A DNA stretch of 64,000 nt from Tortispora ganteri (taxonomy: Eukaryota). The stretch lies in NCBI GenBank assembly GCA_003707115.1, contig PPNB01000002.1, forward strand, positions 496,001 to 560,000. The letters run 5' to 3'. Below, piece after piece: positions 11,067-54,330 of this stretch (position 1 is the stretch's first letter; each line of letters starts with the position of its first letter). The position numbers were made by a program, and so were the translations under genes. The notes below the pieces were generated by a model that was given only the letters and a program-made list of their open reading frames with translations, was not told where the DNA came from and did not search any database.

Positions 11067-12101
11067 ATGGTAAGTAAATAGATGCAAAGCAGCGGGGCCG
11101 ATCATCATGGCCAAATAAATTTACAATACAAAATTTTTTTTCAAAATGTATATCTTCTCTGAAGAACACTGTCTTGTTAAAGACAACGCTCTTCAATGAG
11201 AAGAAATTTAGAATGGCTTGAGTCTCGTAATGAGACTGTAGAGTGATGTGACGCCCATGACAAGCTTTTAGTTCATCATTTTTTATTATAAATTCGAACT
11301 TAGGCTAACCACTCAATGACCCAGGCCCCTAAGAAAGTTGCCCCCGCTCCTCTTTCTTCTAAGAAGACTTCTGCCAAATCTGGTGAGAACGCTCTTTTCG
11401 AGACCACTACACGCAACTACGGCGTTGGTCAAGATATCCAACCCAAACGTAACTTGACCCGCTTTGTGCGATGGCCTGAATACGTTCGTCTTCAACGTCA
11501 ACGTAAGATCTTACGTATGCGTTTGAAAGTTCCTCCTGCCATTGCTCAGTTCCAAACTGTGCTCGACAAAAACACCGCTACTCAAGCATTCAAACTTCTC
11601 AACAAGTATCGTCCCGAGACTAAGGCCGAGAAGAAGGTCCGTCTTACTAACGAAGCCGCTGCTATTGCTGAAGGCAAGAAGCGGGAAGACGTCTCTCCTA
11701 AACCTTATGCTGTCAAGTACGGTCTTAACCACGTTGTCTCTTTGATTGAGAACAAGAAGGCTAAGTTGGTTTTGATCGCTGACGATGTCGATCCTATCGA
11801 ACTCGTTGTTTATATCCCTGCTCTTTGCCGTAAAATGAACGTTCCTTACGCTATTGTTAAAGGCAAGGCTCGTCTTGGAACTGTTGTTCATTCTAAGACC
11901 GCTACCGCTGTCGCTCTCACCGAGGTCCGCTCTGAGGATGAGTCTGAGCTCGCTAAGCTCATCTCTACCATCAACTCTGGATACGCCGAGAAGGCAAATG
12001 ACGCTCGTCGCAAATGGGGTGGTGGTATTATGGGTGCCAAGGCCCAAGACAAGATCCGCAAGGCTGAAGCTCGTGCTGCTGCCGCCGCTGTCAAGGTCTA
12101 A
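11067..12101 (+). CDS. RPL8: 60S ribosomal protein eL8 (L8/L7a); exon 1 is ATG only (11067-11069), intron 11070-11324, exon 2 11325-12101
   Basis: ATG|GTAAGT donor, GCTAAC branch at 11304-11309 and CAG at 11322-11324. Splicing gives [10 protein letters not shown].... eL8 motifs [23 protein letters not shown] and WGGGIMG. Confidence 0.96.
11150..11265 (+). ncRNA. Structured intronic RNA, candidate H/ACA snoRNA in the RPL8 intron
   Basis: Hairpin 1: TGAAGA 11160-65/TCTTCA 11190-95 and TGTCTT/AAGACA. ANANNA (AGAAGA) at 11199-11204. Hairpin 2: ATGG/CCAT with AGTCTC/GAGACT. ACA at 11260-62. Confidence 0.5.
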
Positions 12102-19535: not shown

Positions 19536-19722
19536 TTTTTTATTATTCTATAAAGACTGACAAGCAAAAGGAAATCGCGTTAAGGAAAGACAGCTAAGGT
19601 ATTTAGTCGACCTAAAAAGTTGTTAAGCCGGGTAACTTTGTGCGAAATTTTGTGTGCCCTAGGAAGCAGTATATATAATGTGCGACGCAGATTTCGATAC
19701 GACATCGCTTGTTTTTTTGAAG

Positions 19723-19927
19723 GTAAGTTGGTTTGACGAGAAAAAAGATGGAAGAATACAAAAAGAGACGGCCATTGGGATGATGATAAACGATTTACGC
19801 AACTACAATTCTCTTAGACGACTTGTGCGGAGTAACAATTTTTGAGCTTTTTAACCCTGACACCAATGGACCGGACCTGTTTATCGGATATGTTAACCAA
19901 AATGAAGAAAGAAACTAACAAATGCAG
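19723..19927 (+). other. Spliceosomal intron of a non-coding snoRNA host transcript
   Basis: TATATAA at ~19672; AG|GTAAGT donor at 19723; ACTAAC branch at 19914-19; CAG ending at 19927. No ORF in the flanking exons. Confidence 0.75.
19772..19869 (+). ncRNA. snR47: Box C/D snoRNA, snR47/U36a-like (guide for the 18S Am619 equivalent)
   Basis: C box ATGATGA 19780-86; D box CTGA 19857-60; terminal stem CCATTGG/CCAATGG. Guide GAGCTTTTTAAC (19844-55) is complementary to conserved 18S GUUAAAAAGCUC, and the D+5 rule places methylation on the first A. Confidence 0.88.
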
Positions 19928-20082
19928 TTCTTGACGGTTAAACGTCGCCAATCAGTATTGTGGTCGACCGCTTGCCGTGGTGAGTTGACTGTGTAGGTAT
20001 GAATACGCATTCTACAGATAACGAAAAGAGGAATAGTTCATCTTGTAAACGTAAGAGTGACAATAGTACGTCAGTGCAGTTT

Positions 20083-20611
20083 TTATTTTAGCACAGCAAA
20101 AAGCTTAGGAGCGGCACATTCAGTGACGCAATGTTGTAAATGAAAGAATTCTTCGACGCAGTCTAGACAGTTAGTATCTGATTGTTCTTGTTCTAAAAAA
20201 GCCTTCACGATTAAGCCGTATAACTTCGCATTACTTACCTTCTTTGTACTCTTTGTCGGCATAATCTGGCTCCTCCATCTCCTTCGTAACGCGCTCAATG
20301 CATTCTTCTAAGTGGTGAACGAAAGGCTTGCATTCTGCAGTTTGGGCGCATTCGTCTTTGATGGCAGGGAAGGGATCTTCTGGTTCTTCTTCCTCCTCTT
20401 CCTCTTCTTCAGCCTCTTCTTCAGCCTCTTCTTCAGCCCCTTCTTCAGCTTCAGAAGGTTCTTCTACTTCTTCCTCTTCTTCTTCCTTTTACATTGTCAG
20501 TACTGCAAATTTCATAAGAATCTTAGAGATCGAACTTACCTCTTCAGCTCGAGCAACTGTCGGAGTTACGGCTTCGATGAGCTCCTCGTATAGGCTAGCA
20601 AGTATAGACAT
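20083..20611 (-). CDS. QCR6: Cytochrome bc1 hinge subunit; exons 20611-20540, 20485-20239, 20162-20083
   Basis: Two GTAAGT introns, with TACTGAC..AAG and TACTAAC..TAG ends. The spliced product has an acidic N-terminus, DPFPAIKDEC...C...HH...C and EDCVEEFFHLQHC...CAAPKLF. Confidence 0.93.
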
Positions 20612-20781
20612 TATCAAATCTAAAGGATCAAATCTATGACAGAATTCCGATTAAGTATTCACAGAAATTACAGAGTTTAATTACCAAGCAAAATATTTGT
20701 GAATGCTTCGAGAAAAACAGCTAGTGGTGTGGTTGGTTTGGGTGGTAGTCGGTCTATTAGAATGGAATATTCCTCGCTTTG

Positions 20782-20810
20782 TGATTGGTCAGTTGTTCGA
20801 CAGCCAATCA
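20782..20810. promoter_or_regulatory. Inverted pair of CCAAT boxes (Hap2/3/5 sites) upstream of QCR6
   Basis: TGATTGG 20782-88 and CCAATCA 20804-10, ~170-200 nt upstream of a respiratory-chain gene. Confidence 0.55.
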
Positions 20811-20927
20811 TACACCGCCTTGTTTTCGCTTTACTGATAGGACTCACCTGCATACACATGAATATGTAGTTTTTTGTTTCATTAATTATTAATTAGTAGT
20901 TTGCGTCTAACGAGTCATAGAAAGGCT

Positions 20928-22517
20928 CTAAAGGTGGTTGCCGCACAAGTAGGTGACCACGCGTGTAGAGGCAGGCACAGCCCGCTCTTCCTGTTGTAAA
21001 TGCTCGTCAGTAACTAGAGTACAATGAGTGGTCAATTTGTCCACTTCAGCTCTCATAGATCTCTGGAGTTCGGGGTCAGAGGTCATCATTACCACGTTAG
21101 ACTCTAGGTCCAGAGAGTGAGATCGCATGGTGTAATTAGAAGATCCAATCAGCGTGAGAACCGGGTTTTCATCGCCCGCGGTAGCCCATATACCTTTAGC
21201 ATGGTAAGACCATCCGCCTTCTTCATGTACGGTTCCGTTGCGCCATTCCAGCATATCTATGGGCGCATTGTTCTTTTTAATAAGATTGTAAAACTTCTTA
21301 GTCAATTCAAGGTACGCGCCCGCAATGTATCCAGCGGGGCCCCTGGCTCCGAAAAAACCGTTGGCCTCCGGGGCAGCAACGATAACAGTGCCTTGTCCTT
21401 TGGCTTTGAACAACGGGCTAGAATAGTCAGAGTGAACGTTGAAGTATCCTGCGGTTAGCCACCATTTCGGGTTAACAGGAGAGTTCGCAATATAGTTGGA
21501 GAGAGCGACAATAGCAGGATGTTCTGTAGACAATTGTTGATCAAGTATAGGAGTAAGCTGCGAAATAGGATACACAACAGTAACCGCTTCATTGGGACGT
21601 ACATCCTGATGATGAGTGTGAGAGCGCGGTCCTAGGAGTCTGGCCATGGCAAGAGTAGCTGCCGCTTTATAATTGGCAGCATCATGAACGGGGTTAGGAG
21701 CAATGTTAGTATCAGGCCATACCACATCAAAGACATTTTCGTCTGAAGGTTGGCAATCAAATGATAAATCCATTAAAGTTTTCTGCATATCGTGATAGTA
21801 ATCAGTTAGCGCGGCAGAATGGAACGTGTAATATCTGTCTTGTCTAATAGTGAAGTAGGCAGTACTCAAATTAGCACCCGATAGTATGACAGTATCATCG
21901 AAGCCGTATGCTTTCTGATGTTGAACACCTTTGCCTTCCCAGAAAAGTCTTGGCAGGAACTTCTTGCTAAGCCCGGAAAGATTCGGGGTATGGTAGAGAC
22001 GCACTGCGACTCTGTCGGGAAACTCGCGAACCAGCGGAATTAGCAATGATGCAGAGCAGGGGCCTTTAGGATGTTCTCTGGTTCCACGAAGCGCATCGAT
22101 TAGGATAGTGACTTGCAGTTCGCGATTTTTAAGGAGGGCATCACGCAAGCAGTTGACAAGTTCGTGTTGGCTAGGGCCAATATAGAGTGTTGATAAGAAA
22201 ATGCGCCGCTTAGCGGTAGATATTTTTTGTTTTAGTGTCTCATAAAAATCGGCCGGCAGCGAAATGATTTCGACCTGGCCCTTGCCTAAGAAAAACTTCG
22301 GTGCAAGGTTGTCGAGATATCGCATAAGCGGATGCACATAAGAGTTGATGGAAATGGTACCAGCATGATGAGCAGATTGCTGTTTTTGAGTAATAACTTG
22401 TGCAGTTGACATAATATTAGGAGATTTAGTGGATGAATAGCGATAATTGTGGTTGTATTGACAGTATGAAGAAATGCGCAAGAACTTCGACTTAAGGCGC
22501 GCGGGTCGATGTAGCAT
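20928..22517 (-). CDS. PGS1: Mitochondrial phosphatidylglycerolphosphate synthase
   Basis: Arg/Ser-rich presequence; RIFLSTLYIG and LIDALRGTR; two HK motifs (QHQKAYGFD...SGANLS and YHAKGIW...IGSSNY). Confidence 0.95.
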   Translation of the reverse strand: MLHRPARLKSKFLRISSYCQYNHNYRYSSTKSPNIMSTAQVITQKQQSAHHAGTISINSYVHPLMRYLDNLAPKFFLGKGQVEIISLPADFYETLKQKISTAKRRIFLSTLYIGPSQHELVNCLRDALLKNRELQVTILIDALRGTREHPKGPCSASLLIPLVREFPDRVAVRLYHTPNLSGLSKKFLPRLFWEGKGVQHQKAYGFDDTVILSGANLSTAYFTIRQDRYYTFHSAALTDYYHDMQKTLMDLSFDCQPSDENVFDVVWPDTNIAPNPVHDAANYKAAATLAMARLLGPRSHTHHQDVRPNEAVTVVYPISQLTPILDQQLSTEHPAIVALSNYIANSPVNPKWWLTAGYFNVHSDYSSPLFKAKGQGTVIVAAPEANGFFGARGPAGYIAGAYLELTKKFYNLIKKNNAPIDMLEWRNGTVHEEGGWSYHAKGIWATAGDENPVLTLIGSSNYTMRSHSLDLESNVVMMTSDPELQRSMRAEVDKLTTHCTLVTDEHLQQEERAVPASTRVVTYLCGNHL

Positions 22518-22984
22518 TTATATATACGCGAGTGGGAGGCGATACCGAGTATAATGGCAAAAGGGGAAACTTAGAAACAACACTTATTTAAGAAAAGAGA
22601 CTAAGGCCGGCAACAAATAGCAGAGCGAATTTTGAGAGTTACGACTATAGAGTCAAGAAAAATACAAGAGAAGGGAGGAATGAGTCAAAGCTTATCTGCG
22701 AATATTCAGCTATATCGCGCATTAAACCAATAGGAACATTTGAATGCAAAAATAGAGTGTAAGATAAGGCGGTATAGAGTTTTCATCTATACTACAGTTG
22801 ACCCGAATGGAGGGATCCAAAGCAACTTCCTGTAATAGACTCCGATCGCGATAAGCAAAGGAGCAGCCAAGCAGCCGCAGATTAGATTGCGCCTCAAGTT
22901 GCAATTGGTTCCGAAGAATGCACACTCTTCCGCTGAAAAGGTTGGAGGGAGGGTGGAATAAATAACGACGATGAAAGATAATTT

Positions 22985-23987
22985 AGTTCATTTTAGTCTC
23001 GATTTCAAAACACGTGCGAAAGTTTTGAATAGTCGGTAACATTAAGCGTGCCTTTCTCCGAAACTTTCTATACACTAAATGTCGCTTAGCACATCTTTCA
23101 GGGTGGTTTGAGCAGAAGGAAACTAATATCGAAATAAAGTTCTAACTGCAACTGTCACAGTAGCTTTTATGCGTTGAAAACGCAAAACCCTTTTGCAACT
23201 GAATATCGATCCGCTACCTTTGCGGTTAAAAGCACAAAAGAATAATTCTCAGGTTGAATACTTGATCTGTAGTGTATTGTAAGTGAGTCAAAATCATTGA
23301 AACTCAAAAATGTGCAAGCAAGTTCAAGCGCCATTCGAACCTAACGGCTATAGCGTTAAAAGTTCTATTAGACGGCCTTTGAGTCGTTAAACAAAAAAAT
23401 GGTACTAAAGTACCGGGTTAAATGCGGTACTGGATTGTTTTCAAATTTTAGTTCCACTTTTTGATGTAGAATGATTCTTTAGTTTAAGTCTAGATCAATT
23501 ACTTTGAGATCGCGTGAGCCTAACGACCGTACGGCGCCACCAGAAACAAAGTCGAAGGTAGCAGATCGCAAATTAACGTACTAACTAACGCCTTGCCACT
23601 AAAGATTTCTAAATTTATCTTTTCTTATTAGGGTAGTAATCTTCGACCCTAATTTCAGTTTCATTAAACCGAAACTAACGAGCTGCGCAGACTAATTAGG
23701 TCTGAGTCAGGAAAGGTTAAATTTAGTCGATCGTGTTTAGCGGGGTTAGGATCACATGACTTGATCTAGCTTTGAAAATTTACATACATCAGCTGTCACA
23801 TTTATAGTAATAGTTTCTATTACTATACAATGAAATAAAGTCAGGTCTTCCAGTTGGTTCAATATGTTTGCGGTAGTACTTGTGACAATATACCCAGCGA
23901 ACTCTCACAAGCACCCGCAGCCTTTGAAACTACATTATTGTTGCATGTGAATTATGTACTGAAATAAGATAATGAGATTTTTTGCAA
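22985..23987 (+). ncRNA. ~1 kb structured non-coding RNA, candidate telomerase RNA (TER)
   Basis: No ORF of 60 aa or more. Many nested long-range helices with plus-strand G-U pairs. Pseudoknot at 23158-23240. 5'/3' closure 22988-23007 with 23960-75, directly followed by Sm-like ATTTTTTG 23977-84. Template not confidently identified. Confidence 0.55.
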
Positions 23988-24179
23988 AGTATAACCCTCT
24001 CGAAGTACTTAGTTTTAATACCGTCATTCAGTACAAAATCAGTACAAGGGTGTGTGTTCCTGTTGGAGTAAATTAATACTGCCGGATTAGGGTTTGCAAT
24101 GCCTGCTAAACACACCAATACAATTCACAAAGCACACACTACCGCACGACGTGGTTTTGTAACACCGGAATTGACAGAA

Positions 24180-25161
24180 ATGGGTTATAACGATTTACCG
24201 GTAAGTAAAATAGCTAGATTTTGTGGTATTCTTGTGTATTTATTTTATATATTAAAAGAAACCGCTGCAAGTTTTGAAGGAGTATTGAAACTAACCACTG
24301 CGACTATTATAGGCCTTTGCAACACCAGCACAAGCGTTCGGAAGACGTCAAAGCGGTGACTCTACAAGAAGATCATCGTATGAGCAGCAGCAGTCTGTGA
24401 ATATACCTATCCAGCGAGTTCCTCCGCCACCGGCACCACTTAACAAGAAGATGAGTTCGCCTCTACAAAGTCACACAATATATGCTCAATCGGCGCCGCC
24501 GAATTCTTATTCTAATAGACCTTCACCCCGGCCGTCACAGATGTACGGGTCGATGCCGGCGTGTAGTACGAGCCGATCTCAGAGTCCTGCACAAGTTTCG
24601 CCGCGCAAAGTACTACCACCTATGACTCCGGAAGAGCATGCCGCCATAGTCTCATTATTTGCCAGTGGGGATCAAAATAAAACCGGATTTCTGAAGGACT
24701 CCGAGTTAGCCAAGATTTTAACAAATTATGACTTTTCACGGTTTAACCCGCGGACAGTAAGACTCATGGTGAGAATTTTTGGAAACACTAGGCAGGGCCA
24801 GCTAGATTTTGTTGAGTTTTGTCATCTTTGGCAGTATCTCAACGAATGGAGAAAGGTGTATTCTGAGTCTGATCAGGATAGATCAGGACTTATTTCGTAT
24901 GAAGAGTTTCGCAATGCGGTTATTCGATTTGGGTTTAGGCTTTCAGATAAGTTTATTACATTGTTATTCCGGACGTTTGCTAGCCGAATGGATCCTCGAA
25001 CAAACAAACCTGCCATTACGTTTGACATGTTCGTTCAGGCTTGCATTACATTACAACGAATGACACAGTTCTTTAAAGACGCCGACGCCGACAATGACGG
25101 GTTCGCTTCTTTTTCAGTTGAGAATTTTATGAGTATTGTGCTTGATCTGACAATTATTTAA
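24180..25161 (+). CDS. PEF1: Penta-EF-hand protein (peflin/ALG-2); exon 1 24180-24200, intron 24201-24312
   Basis: ATG...CCG|GTAAGT donor, ACTAAC at ~24290 and TAG at 24310-12, in frame with the 24397 ORF. Pro/Ser-rich N-terminus; F.EF..LW.Y...W, DQDRSGLI and TFDMFVQAC. Confidence 0.9.
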
Positions 25162-25326
25162 ATAATTGCGTCTTCTGGCTGGTTTTGAGGCAGCGATCGT
25201 CATGCTTTGCCTTGCTTCTTTGGCGAAAGGGGAGGGTATGCGAGCAGCTAATACTCCCAACTTGTACACTGACGCTTTCGTGCAGAAAACGACAAGAAAC
25301 GACGATATTCTGCTATTACATCGAAG

Positions 25327-35909: not shown

Positions 35910-35924
35910 TAGGGTTAGGGTTAG
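35910..35924. promoter_or_regulatory. Tandem TTAGGG (Tbf1/Teb1-type) element in the divergent MRPL36/MED4 promoter
   Basis: TAGGGTTAGGGTTAG; similar elements at 43872-84, 45430-45, 53054-63 and 54256-68. Confidence 0.6.
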
Positions 35925-43790: not shown

Positions 43791-44000
43791 AGCTTGGTTA
43801 ATGACAAAAATACGTGCAGTAGTTCTGCTTGGTTATTGTTTAATTATACCCAAATGGGAGATGTAATTAAATAGGGTTAGGGTAATCAATTTGGGAACAT
43901 CAACATTTTCAACCATTTTTACGATCTTTCTGTATCTAGTTTTTCTTTTCAGTTATTACAACTATTTGTTACCCCTCAAACCTTTCTATATAATAAAGCT

Positions 44001-52925: not shown

Positions 52926-53440
52926 GTCCTATTTGTGTTGTTTGCGTGGTTAGTGAAGGCAAGGTTGACGGGGGATGAGAACTAGGCCTGATGAAAGTTT
53001 GCAAAGAAAGGTTCCTATTGGTTAAAAATATCACGTGACTCTATTGGGATTTAAACCCTAACCTGAATTTAAATGAATGTGATTGGACGGAATTTTTGAA
53101 ACCTTATAATTTAAACGATTGTGTTTAATTGGCTTTTTATCAACTGGTTTTGTATTGGGTAAACGAGTATACTTTATTGGCTGTTCAAAATTACGCGAAA
53201 CCTAAATACTACACTTTTATTCATTTTATTGTTTATCTCCCCATCAGCGTATGTAGTAGATGGCAAAATAGAAAAGTAGTTGAATGGAAAAATGTGTATT
53301 CTCAGATATAATGCCTTTTTAATCTTTCTGTGAGGTATAATGAGCGTTAACAGCGCCCTGTGTCACGGGCAGTACATGGAATACTAAATGACGTAGAGCG
53401 ATCACCAAAAATACTGTTGACATTCACTTATATGCAGCTA

Positions 53441-53989: not shown

Positions 53990-54330
53990 TGTTAGATAAA
54001 AGCAATTCTAGTTTAGTTTTCTCAGATTCGCGACGTCATTTATACGGCACAAGGCATGCGGGGGTCTTATAAAGTTTTCGGGGTCGTCTTGGTGCGGAAT
54101 CGACTATTAAAGGAACAGTCATTTCCAGATCTATTGCTGTAAAACAAAATTGATAGATGATATGCGTCAATTGTCCGAAAAAGTAGTCAAATGCAATAAA
54201 AATAAAATATTCATTATACACATACGCTGTTATGTTCATATTTAAACAATATGTTTAACCCTAACCCTTTAAATGAAATACTTATGAACTTTGACCCACC
54301 TAAACTACCACCCACACTTTCACCACCACA

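Follow-up and report, generated by a model that had tools for sequence, protein, structure and literature searches.

A structured, ORF-free intergenic locus in a Tortispora yeast as a tentative candidate for a minus-strand telomerase RNA gene

Does the long intergenic stretch between PGS1 and an EF-hand protein gene in a Tortispora yeast encode a structured non-coding RNA, and could that RNA be the telomerase RNA? Within the window (the whole 64-kb stretch of DNA that was analysed), the original prediction had singled out positions 22985-23987 as a plus-strand transcript ending in an Sm site, either the telomerase RNA of a poorly studied yeast lineage or another large RNA of the Sm class. The lineage was correctly guessed: PGS1 is identical to its T. 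caseinolytica counterpart at 445 of 465 residues (96%) and, judged by this protein, the window is from Tortispora, family Trigonopsidaceae. The locus and its flanking genes are as follows.

20928..22517, minus strand: PGS1, CDP-diacylglycerol-glycerol-3-phosphate 3-phosphatidyltransferase, the left flank (assigned by T. caseinolytica identity)
24099..25161, plus strand: EF-hand protein gene, PEF1-like, the right flank (EF-hand Pfam matches, E 1e-14)
22908..24051, no strand assigned: the whole candidate RNA locus, ORF-free, of balanced composition and high self-complementarity (helices with pair probability of at least 0.8)

The claim that this is the longest ORF-free gap of the window held up: 1933 nt are without an ATG-initiated ORF of at least 150 aa, the runners-up measuring 1392 and 1299 nt, and the gap is 1581 nt long if it is ended at the EF-hand ATG (24099). 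The EF-hand gene has an intron, whose GTAAGT start was read from the sequence at ~24200. From about 22900 to 24100 the GC and AT skews are both close to zero, in which this stretch differs from other gaps and from the purine-rich segment 22300-22900. The interval 22985-23987 is predicted to be structured, as had been proposed, but its limits were drawn too tightly, since helices with pair probability of at least 0.8 extend from ~22908 to 24051; all eight sequence features listed for it are present where they had been placed.

A protein-coding gene in the gap was ruled out by stops in every frame, by ORFs of at most 86 aa (the longest at 22722-22982, minus strand) and by a Pfam scan in which none of the three gap ORFs matched; inside 22985-23987 the longest stop-to-stop ORF is 57 aa. 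Because 13 plus-strand ATGs lie upstream of the EF-hand ATG, the gap was also ruled out as a long 5'UTR of that gene. A tRNA search of the gap found none, and a scan for bacterial-type promoters and terminators is uninformative for a yeast. Reads of four other sequencing runs from the same studies gave no match to 20900-25200 at 80% likeness, coding flanks included. Among the runs listed as sharing words with 22600-24100, two are DNA runs, with 0.88 of the words in common, and none is an RNA run.

Folding energies of the 1003-nt region were compared with those of 40 dinucleotide shuffles per strand. The plus strand of 22985-23987 folds at -248.3 kcal/mol, against -225.0 +/- 7.0 for shuffled sequence (z -3.33), and the minus strand at -252.4 kcal/mol, against -220.3 +/- 6.6 (z -4.83), so that the stability ascribed to the region survived this comparison on both strands. 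Nine further 1003-nt segments, seven from gaps and two coding, were folded on both strands as controls (n=18) and gave z values from +3.13 to -3.96; none of the 18 reaches -4.83, and the one that reaches -3.33 is a coding segment (-3.96). The 14 gap values run from +3.13 to -1.70 with none below, which upholds the view that the gap folds unusually well for a gap. Mean z over 200-nt windows is -0.34 and -0.56 in this gap and +0.52 to -0.11 in three other gaps, and is negative only here. The value of -3.96 from one coding control segment weakens the fold signal as evidence for an RNA. With moderate confidence, we take a structured non-coding RNA to be the most likely product of the ~1.15-kb ORF-free stretch from PGS1 to the EF-hand gene.

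Single-sequence prediction gives the following local elements.

22908..23064, no strand assigned: left-hand domain with 11-bp and 8-bp closing helices (probabilities 0.99 and 0.97), partly outside 22985-23987
23485..23772, minus strand: predicted closed 288-nt domain with a 9-bp perfect closing helix, CUAGAUCAA (23769-61)/UUGAUCUAG (23498-90), and flanking pairs
23565..23875, plus strand: alternative closed 311-nt domain (z -5.79), its central four-way junction common with the minus domain
23609..23726, no strand assigned: A/U-rich helix 23609-17/23718-26 plus 23621-24/23711-14 around three hairpins (probabilities 0.84-0.99)
23683-23710, 23655-23678 and 23627-23653, no strand assigned: the three enclosed hairpins, the last of them TTAGGGT/ACCCTAA
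23803..23827, no strand assigned: perfect 11-bp hairpin with a 3-nt loop (probability 0.98)
23869..23919, no strand assigned: hairpin of 10 + 5 bp with a 19-nt loop (probabilities 1.00 and 0.98)

The helix that closes the minus-strand domain has a predicted pair probability of 0.96. The segment 23480-23780 (301 nt) folds at -85.5 kcal/mol on the minus strand (z -5.04, none of 100 shuffles as good) and at -80.8 kcal/mol on the plus strand (z -3.07), and, in a telomerase RNA, the minus-strand domain within it would be the presumed core around the template. The alternative segment, 23565-23875, folds at -88.4 kcal/mol on the plus strand (z -5.79, again with none of 100 shuffles as good) and at -74.7 kcal/mol on the minus strand (z -4.33). 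The A/U-rich helix region is the stablest 200-nt window of the gap (z -3.66 and -2.97); A/U-rich strands lie at 23609-24, 23711-26 and 23543-53. The perfect 11-bp hairpin had been pointed out before, and it recurs in the inverted-repeat listing. An RNALfold z scan of the whole window placed the locus second, at -5.49, but two block-shuffled 64-kb copies gave top values of -6.07, -4.95 and -4.95 and of -5.31 and -5.03; because such copies give equal top z, the local fold signal is not significant window-wide. Overall, the fold consists of domains in series, each with its own closing helix, and does not make a single Y-shaped molecule. No pseudoknot or three-way junction was recognised in the predicted single-sequence folds, and no Ku or Est1 arm is recognisable in the region. 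Nested helices and 5'/3' pairing of the kind foreseen do occur (22988-23007 with 23960-75 in the plus-strand MFE fold), but they are found on both strands and so are not discriminating.

On these folds the strand is ambiguous. G-U pairs had been said to favour the plus strand, a claim that the whole-region MFE folds contradict, with 30 such pairs on the plus and 38 on the minus strand; the counts are 11 and 11 in 23480-23780, and 10 (plus) and 7 (minus) in 23565-23875. The plus strand is more stable by 13.7 kcal/mol in 23565-23875 and the minus strand by 4.7 kcal/mol in 23480-23780, and the whole-region z favours the minus strand.

It is plausible, though short of probable, that no stable RNA is made here and that the gap is a long intergenic or promoter region shared by two divergent genes, its complementarity being a chance tail together with palindromes that proteins would bind, for example the inverted TTAGGGT/ACCCTAA (Tbf1/Tay1-type sites). 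TTAGGG-type motifs are common in promoters of the window and stand in tandem at 35910, 43872, 53054 and 54256, 49-129 nt upstream of ORF starts. Strands that fold about equally, with equal G-U counts, are what DNA-level symmetry would give, and the same reading is favoured by the local z values of -5 to -6 that arise in block-shuffled copies of the window, by the coding control at -3.96 and by the absence of an Rfam match. It sits less well with the position of the region as an outlier to the 14 gap control values, with 200-nt means that are negative in this gap and not in the three others, and with near-zero skews that neither other gaps nor 22300-22900 display; moreover, 1.1 kb would be a long promoter for so compact a genome.

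If an RNA is made, its class is not apparent from known families. The region has no match in Rfam at gathering thresholds, and when 22300-24300 was compared with 4227 Rfam families by cmscan the sole match at E<=10 was to RT-6, at a chance-level E of 4.4. U1, U2, SRP, RNase P and MRP are ruled out as far as Rfam can see, and no Sm-class snRNA core (U1, U2, U4, U5) was matched at E<=10. A U2 snRNA, to which a 10-nt likeness around CUAGAUCAAGU had pointed, was dropped, the invariant branch-point-binding sequence being absent and an Rfam U2 match lacking. The proposed search with fungal telomerase RNA models in Infernal was also carried out and gave no match at E<=10 in 22300-24300; because these models are insensitive and clade-restricted, this null is weak evidence against a telomerase RNA.

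Another kind of structured non-coding RNA is possible but rather unlikely: one or more large divergent H/ACA snoRNAs, or a spliced plus-strand non-coding host transcript that carries them. Large H/ACA snoRNAs such as snR30/U17 are hundreds of nt long, are built of hairpin domains, evolve fast and are often missed by Rfam. The separately closed domains in series are in keeping with such an RNA, and 23796-23939 can be drawn by eye on the plus strand as hairpin, AAAUAA, hairpin, ACA, but the putative internal loops are too small for convincing guide pockets, no Rfam snoRNA family is matched at E<=10 and no perfect C box (RUGAUGA) is seen by eye on either strand. snR30 itself was rejected: in the gap its m1 motif is matched only with one mismatch, at 22731-22739, and such matches occur at chance level window-wide (23 found, 17.5 expected). 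A host transcript would be consistent with the consensus 5' splice site GTAAGT at 23279 on the plus strand and with the ACTAAC branch-point and CTAACG motifs: window-wide the plus strand has 15 and 14 of these, of which 3 and 4, respectively, fall in the gap. On its minus strand the gap has none of the three motifs. However, there is a single canonical 5' splice site, and by an estimate from the counts the motif clusters are marginal after allowing for the number of 6-mers. The window's other top structured locus (11094-11256) is intronic, which suggests that RNAs carried in introns occur in this genome.

We return to the reading with which we began. That the structured RNA is the Tortispora telomerase RNA, encoded on the minus strand, is the most specific identification for which the data leave room, but a tentative and by itself an unlikely one; for a telomerase RNA at this locus, the minus strand is the more probable of the two. 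The region has a size that would suit: the telomerase RNA of the early-branching budding yeast Y. lipolytica is intergenic and ~950 nt long, as described by Cervenak et al. (2019, PMC6746865). For a ~10-Mb genome, the prior that its single telomerase RNA gene falls in a given 64-kb window is <1%. The motifs that bear on this reading are listed below.

23737..23749, minus strand: template-like motif, plus DNA TTAGCGGGGTTAG, a 9-nt unit with 4 nt of redundancy (periodic-motif search)
23977..23984, plus strand: Sm-like ATTTTTTG, the 3' landmark of the original prediction (motif search)
23392..23400, minus strand: Sm-like AUUUUUUUG, directly after the hairpin GGUAC-UUUA-GUACC (motif search)
23304-23311, minus strand: second minus-strand Sm-like motif, AUUUUUGA (motif search)

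Since TTAGCGGGGTTAG reads telomere-like on the plus DNA, a telomerase RNA that uses this template would be minus-strand; it would read 5'-CUAACCCCGCUAA-3' at 23737-23749 and specify TTAGCGGGG repeats. The motif is among 10 periodic TTAG/GGG motifs counted over both strands of the window, and no other that would serve a minus-strand RNA is both G-rich and C-poor; a second template-like motif, 23637-23653, lies on the other strand of the same gap. The implied repeat would fit the TTAG-insert-GGG pattern described for telomeres of the Yarrowia clade (PMC6746865, PMC7857110). Within the family, the supplement of PMC7857110 gives an 11-nt putative telomeric repeat, TTAGCGAGGTG, for T. vinaria (Trigonopsidaceae), from which TTAGCGGGGTTAG is two deletions away (cyclic edit distance 2) and which has TTAGCG followed by a G-rich tail in common with the implied TTAGCGGGG. 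That repeat, however, is itself putative, has 11 nt where ours has 9 and comes from another genus. Sites with a cyclic edit distance of <=2 and a redundancy of >=4 nt number 4 on both strands of the window, compared with 2.0 per 64 kb in simulation, and the likeness therefore has a chance of ~0.05-0.1 of arising in a gap of 1.58 kb.

In the MFE fold the motif is paired, with a probability of 0.86-0.96, and may be no more than half of a stem. Keeping it unpaired costs the domain 9.2 kcal/mol and leaves it at -76.3 kcal/mol, still below the average of the shuffles (-64.2 +/- 4.2). It lies ~11 nt 3' of the 9-bp perfect long-range helix (probability 0.96). Literature searches for the 9-mer TTAGCGGGG and the 11-mer TTAGCGAGGTG returned unrelated papers only, and no telomere repeat for Tortispora was found in the literature searched. 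A metagenome scan for two tandem copies of TTAGCGGGG found them in at least 119 stretches; the three inspected (L033, L036 and L063) are high-GC and bacteria-like, their 9-nt repeats lie internally, and none is the end of a yeast chromosome.

The Sm-like motifs do little to settle the matter. The Sm site foreseen at the 3' end, ATTTTTTG, is present at 23977-84 but carries no evidential weight, because the background is about one such motif per kb on each strand: over the 64 kb, A(T)4-7G was counted 66 times on the plus and 64 times on the minus strand, and 2 and 5 times, respectively, within 22500-24100. Both minus-strand sites, AUUUUUUUG and AUUUUUGA, are buried in helices of the MFE fold. 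The features offered as specific to a telomerase RNA fail to discriminate, and they neither establish a telomerase RNA at this locus nor rule one out.

Were the locus a telomerase RNA gene, it might work as follows. We infer transcription of the minus strand, the RNA starting slightly left of the EF-hand gene, at ~23960-23990, and ending near one of the minus-strand Sm-like sites, which would bind an Sm ring. The 5' part would form a hairpin domain (23776-23965), followed by a core closed by the long-range helix 23772-23758/23511-23486, whose inner end, a few nt 5' of the template, would serve as its boundary. From 5'-CUAACCCCGCUAA-3' (23749 to 23737), telomerase reverse transcriptase would synthesise TTAGCGGGG repeats, realigning through the 4-nt CUAA redundancy. 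Pseudoknot-type elements would lie in the downstream A/U-rich four-way junction. A start of the minus-strand RNA near 23990 would crowd two promoters into the ~100 bp that separate it from the EF-hand ATG, which counts against the model.

The plus-strand RNA of the original prediction, a TMG-capped Sm-class or telomerase RNA of ~1.0 kb from 22985 to just past 23984, now seems improbable. The best single local domain is on that strand (z -5.79, 13.7 kcal/mol beyond its complement), 22988-23007 pairs with 23960-75 in its MFE fold, a hairpin (23994-24051) follows ATTTTTTG and there is room for a promoter in 22530-22950. However, no convincing template was found for a plus-strand RNA, the candidates being UAAUCUUCGACCCUAAU, half of which is taken up in an 8-bp hairpin, and two motifs without telomere likeness. 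The whole-region z favours the other strand, the G-U bias is absent and the Sm motif is at chance frequency; by eye no 5' splice site or branch point lies past the Sm site, and the RNA would end only 50-115 nt before the EF-hand ATG. It is very improbable that 23486-23772 is what remains of a small mobile element of the foldback (MITE-like) type, with inverted ends of ~15 nt: the inverted arms 23483-23507 and 23752-23776, with their 9-bp perfect core, and a dominance of Watson-Crick pairs, which lets both strands fold, would suit one, but blastn (word size 7) found no second copy within the 64-kb window, only chance-level matches of <=35 nt, the interior is a multi-branched junction and not one long hairpin, and the structure signal reaches well past 23486-23772.

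Because telomerase RNAs diverge so rapidly, every yeast lineage requires a solution of its own. TLC1 of S. cerevisiae, transcribed by Pol II, measures ~1 kb and has long arms, with its Sm site close to the 3' end; our region is of a similar size class, but has no Rfam match except the chance-level RT-6. The closest guide is Yarrowia, whose telomerase RNA, by the account in PMC6746865, was located via ~1.5 copies of its TTAG-insert-GGG repeat and was undetectable by standard sequence search. As described there, one helix encloses its core, another, lying upstream of the template, sets the template boundary, and an imperfect Sm site is found close to the 3' end; the model proposed here would have counterparts of each. 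In Yarrowia, however, the RNA is demonstrated: the same source reports that the repeat was known, that transcription was seen by RNA-seq, that helices were backed by 10 aligned species and that deletion removed telomeres (PMC6746865), whereas the Tortispora locus is known here from one sequence.

What the locus means depends on which reading is right. If it is neither a telomerase RNA gene nor another RNA gene, it illustrates that visible complementarity and an AU-rich Sm-like motif are insufficient to call a telomerase RNA; if it encodes another large structured RNA, that RNA would be an unclassified one. Our literature search found no telomerase RNA for Trigonopsidaceae, only the putative T. 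vinaria repeat, and a telomerase RNA at this locus would be the first for the family. It would predict a so far unreported telomere repeat, TTAGCGGGG, of the TTAG-insert-GGG form and intermediate between ancestral TTAGGG and the divergent repeats of budding yeasts. It would thereby add a data point on the drift from TTAGGG to long budding-yeast repeats, and a compact core that could be compared with those of Yarrowia and filamentous fungi.

The gap, a gene-free stretch in which the original prediction had placed a ~1 kb plus-strand telomerase RNA with a 3' Sm site (22985-23987), is flanked by two genes:

20928-22517, minus strand: PGS1, left flank of the gap
ATG at 24099, plus strand: EF-hand protein gene, right flank, with an intron beginning GTAAGT at ~24200

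It comprises 1933 nt without an ATG-initiated ORF of at least 150 aa (1581 nt up to the ATG at 24099) and is indeed the longest ORF-free gap of the window, the runners-up by the same measure being 1392 and 1299 nt. The first of these (19536-20927) contains the sole match in the window at the Rfam gathering threshold, a C/D snoRNA, SNORD36 (19775-19867, plus strand; 30.5 bits, cut-off 30). PGS1 has its closest database relative in T. caseinolytica NRRL Y-17796, whose protein is identical at 445 of 465 residues, with scattered differences; no other database match exceeds 48%. The window accordingly comes from a species that is sister to T. caseinolytica and belongs to the Trigonopsidaceae, a budding-yeast lineage that branched off early. 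The PGS1 ORF extends 64 codons further upstream (22326-22517, minus strand) than its T. caseinolytica counterpart as modelled, and the two align from residue 65 onwards. Since R, K and S are frequent in this extension, which resembles a mitochondrial presequence, the deposited model may be truncated.

A protein-coding gap can be ruled out, as stop codons are abundant in all six frames of 22985-23987, the longest stop-to-stop ORF is 57 aa there and 86 aa in the whole gap (22722-22982, minus strand), and none of three scanned gap ORFs matched Pfam. A long 5'UTR of the EF-hand gene is likewise excluded because 13 plus-strand ATGs precede its start. No tRNA was detected in the gap, nor any repeat that it has in common with the rest of the window. 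Across 22300-24300 the only Rfam match at E<=10 was to RT-6, at chance level, which argues against U1, U2, SRP, RNase P or MRP. Rfam telomerase RNA models are clade-bound, so this result says little about telomerase RNA.

Folding energy was compared with dinucleotide-shuffled controls, a check named in the original prediction, and both strands of 22985-23987 (1003 nt) folded better than 40 shuffles, with z -3.33 on the plus and -4.83 on the minus strand. Nine further stretches of this length elsewhere in the window (seven gaps and two coding), taken on both strands, gave 18 z-values from +3.13 to -3.96, the 14 from gaps ending at -1.70; none attained -4.83 and one, a coding segment, attained -3.33. 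The region taken as 1003 nt is therefore predicted to be moderately more structured than chance. In 200-nt windows the signal is focused at 23600-23799 (z -3.66 and -2.97), and the mean z is -0.34 and -0.56 for the gap, compared with +0.52 to -0.11 for three other gaps. GC and AT skews are near zero over ~22900-24100, which fits a self-complementary molecule; the plus strand of 22300-22900 is strongly purine-rich. Confident helices in the fold of 22900-24060 span 22908-24051, so the predicted structured stretch is broader than that first proposed. Two local domains stand out:

23480-23780, minus strand: -85.5 kcal/mol, z -5.04, 0/100 shuffles equally good
23565-23875, plus strand: -88.4 kcal/mol, z -5.79, 0/100 shuffles equally good

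When the entire window was scanned with RNALfold z-scores, the gap locus came second (-5.49). Because two block-wise dinucleotide-shuffled 64-kb copies gave comparable top values (-6.07, -4.95 and -4.95; -5.31 and -5.03), the local-domain values are within chance when scanned window-wide, and the weight rests only on the pre-specified location and on the long-range comparison with other gaps. First in the scan was an intronic structured element at 11067-11330 (core 11094-11256; z -5.96 minus, about -5.0 plus). The core lies within an intron (GTAAGT at 11070, GCTAAC, then CAG at ~11325) of a gene with its ATG at 11067 and is a candidate intronic snoRNA, with weak chance-level matches only in Rfam at E<=10.

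Every motif listed in the original prediction is present where it had been placed, including the Sm-like ATTTTTTG. As evidence for an Sm site the latter carries little weight, since A(T)4-7G occurs about once per kb per strand (66 plus and 64 minus in 64 kb; two plus and five minus within the gap). The claim that G-U pairs favour the plus strand fails, the counts being 30 plus and 38 minus for the full region and 11 on each strand within the core. Predicted strand preference varies with the cut of the domain: 23565-23875 folds better on plus by 13.7 kcal/mol, and 23480-23780 better on minus by 4.7 kcal/mol. What does not DISCRIMINATE is the Sm-like motif, the G-U counts, the strand preference and the Rfam result. 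The plus-strand model, counted here among the structured-RNA readings, is very improbable.

A telomerase RNA has to contain slightly over one telomere repeat unit. Both window strands were scanned for short periodic motifs (redundancy of at least 4 nt, period 6-14, unit with both TTAG and GGG), giving 10 sites, two of them in the gap. The candidate templates are:

23737-23749, read on plus-strand DNA: telomere-like motif TTAGCGGGGTTAG, from the periodic-motif scan
23637-23653: UAAUCUUCGACCCUAAU, the best candidate for a plus-strand RNA, half buried in an 8-bp hairpin

On a minus-strand RNA, 23737-23749 would serve as the template 5'-CUAACCCCGCUAA-3', implying the 9-nt unit TTAGCGGGG. The motif lies ~11 nt 3' of a perfect 9-bp long-range helix, 23769-61/23498-90 (predicted probability 0.96), which closes a predicted 288-nt domain and would act as a core-enclosing or template-boundary helix. 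Counting against a template, the MFE fold pairs the motif with 23519-24 and 23596-603 (probabilities 0.96 and 0.86), and it could be merely one strand of a stem. Forcing it open costs 9.2 kcal/mol, the domain still reaching -76.3, compared with -64.2 on average for shuffles.

The sole repeat found for Trigonopsidaceae, in a supplementary table (PMC7857110), is the putative T. vinaria TTAGCGAGGTG, two deletions apart from the unit implied here, which has the TTAG-insert-GGG form described for Yarrowia clade repeats (PMC6746865). Four sites on both window strands lie within a cyclic edit distance of 2 from the tabulated T. vinaria unit (redundancy of at least 4 nt), and Markov simulations expect 2.0 per 64 kb, so that the chance of one within the 1.58-kb gap is about 0.05-0.1; the likeness to this one tabulated repeat is suggestive, not strong. 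Neither a telomere repeat nor a telomerase RNA of Tortispora turned up in the literature covered. Metagenomes were scanned for the 9-mer in two tandem copies, and the three loci examined all proved to be bacteria-like high-GC repeats, in arrays of imperfect 9-nt units of TTAGCGGGG and TTAGCGGAG types:

L033, 2001-2160
L036, 1960-2071
L063, 60-350

These arrays, which have no relation to yeast telomeres, sit inside or at the ends of contigs that look bacterial.

The original observation holds in that a ~1.15 kb stretch is real, ORF-free and unusually self-complementary, but its telomerase-RNA-like Sm and G-U support does not. We slightly favour the view that some form of structured non-coding RNA is encoded by this stretch. 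That no stable RNA arises from the gap at all is a real possibility, though a minority one. Within the structured-RNA reading, a minus-strand telomerase RNA templated by 23737-23749 is rather doubtful, and to the same degree so is another RNA class. One or more large snoRNAs would suit the predicted series of separately closed domains, but no box motifs or Rfam matches in the gap support them. There are also hints of a spliced plus-strand non-coding transcript, or of a protein-binding motif: a consensus 5' splice site, GTAAGT, lies at 23279 on the plus strand, and 23341-23675 (335 nt) holds three ACTAAC branch-point motifs and four of the 14 plus-strand CTAACG in 64 kb, all three motifs being absent from the minus strand of the gap. 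The cluster is only marginally significant after allowing for the number of possible 6-mers; it may be due to chance, or may represent branch points or a Myb-type binding site. There is little to favour a foldback mobile element, as the interior is branched and a second copy was not found within the window.

Four of the 10 periodic sites are tandem TTAGGG of ~1.7 to 2.5 copies, 49-129 nt upstream of ORF starts, and a fifth overlaps one of them:

35910-35924: tandem TTAGGG
43872-43883: tandem TTAGGG
53054-53063: tandem TTAGGG
54256-54268: tandem TTAGGG
54254-54272: fifth periodic site, overlapping the 54256 site

The tandem sites look like Tbf1/Tay1-type promoter sites, and template-based searches for telomerase RNA in this genome must discount such promoter-type TTAGGG.
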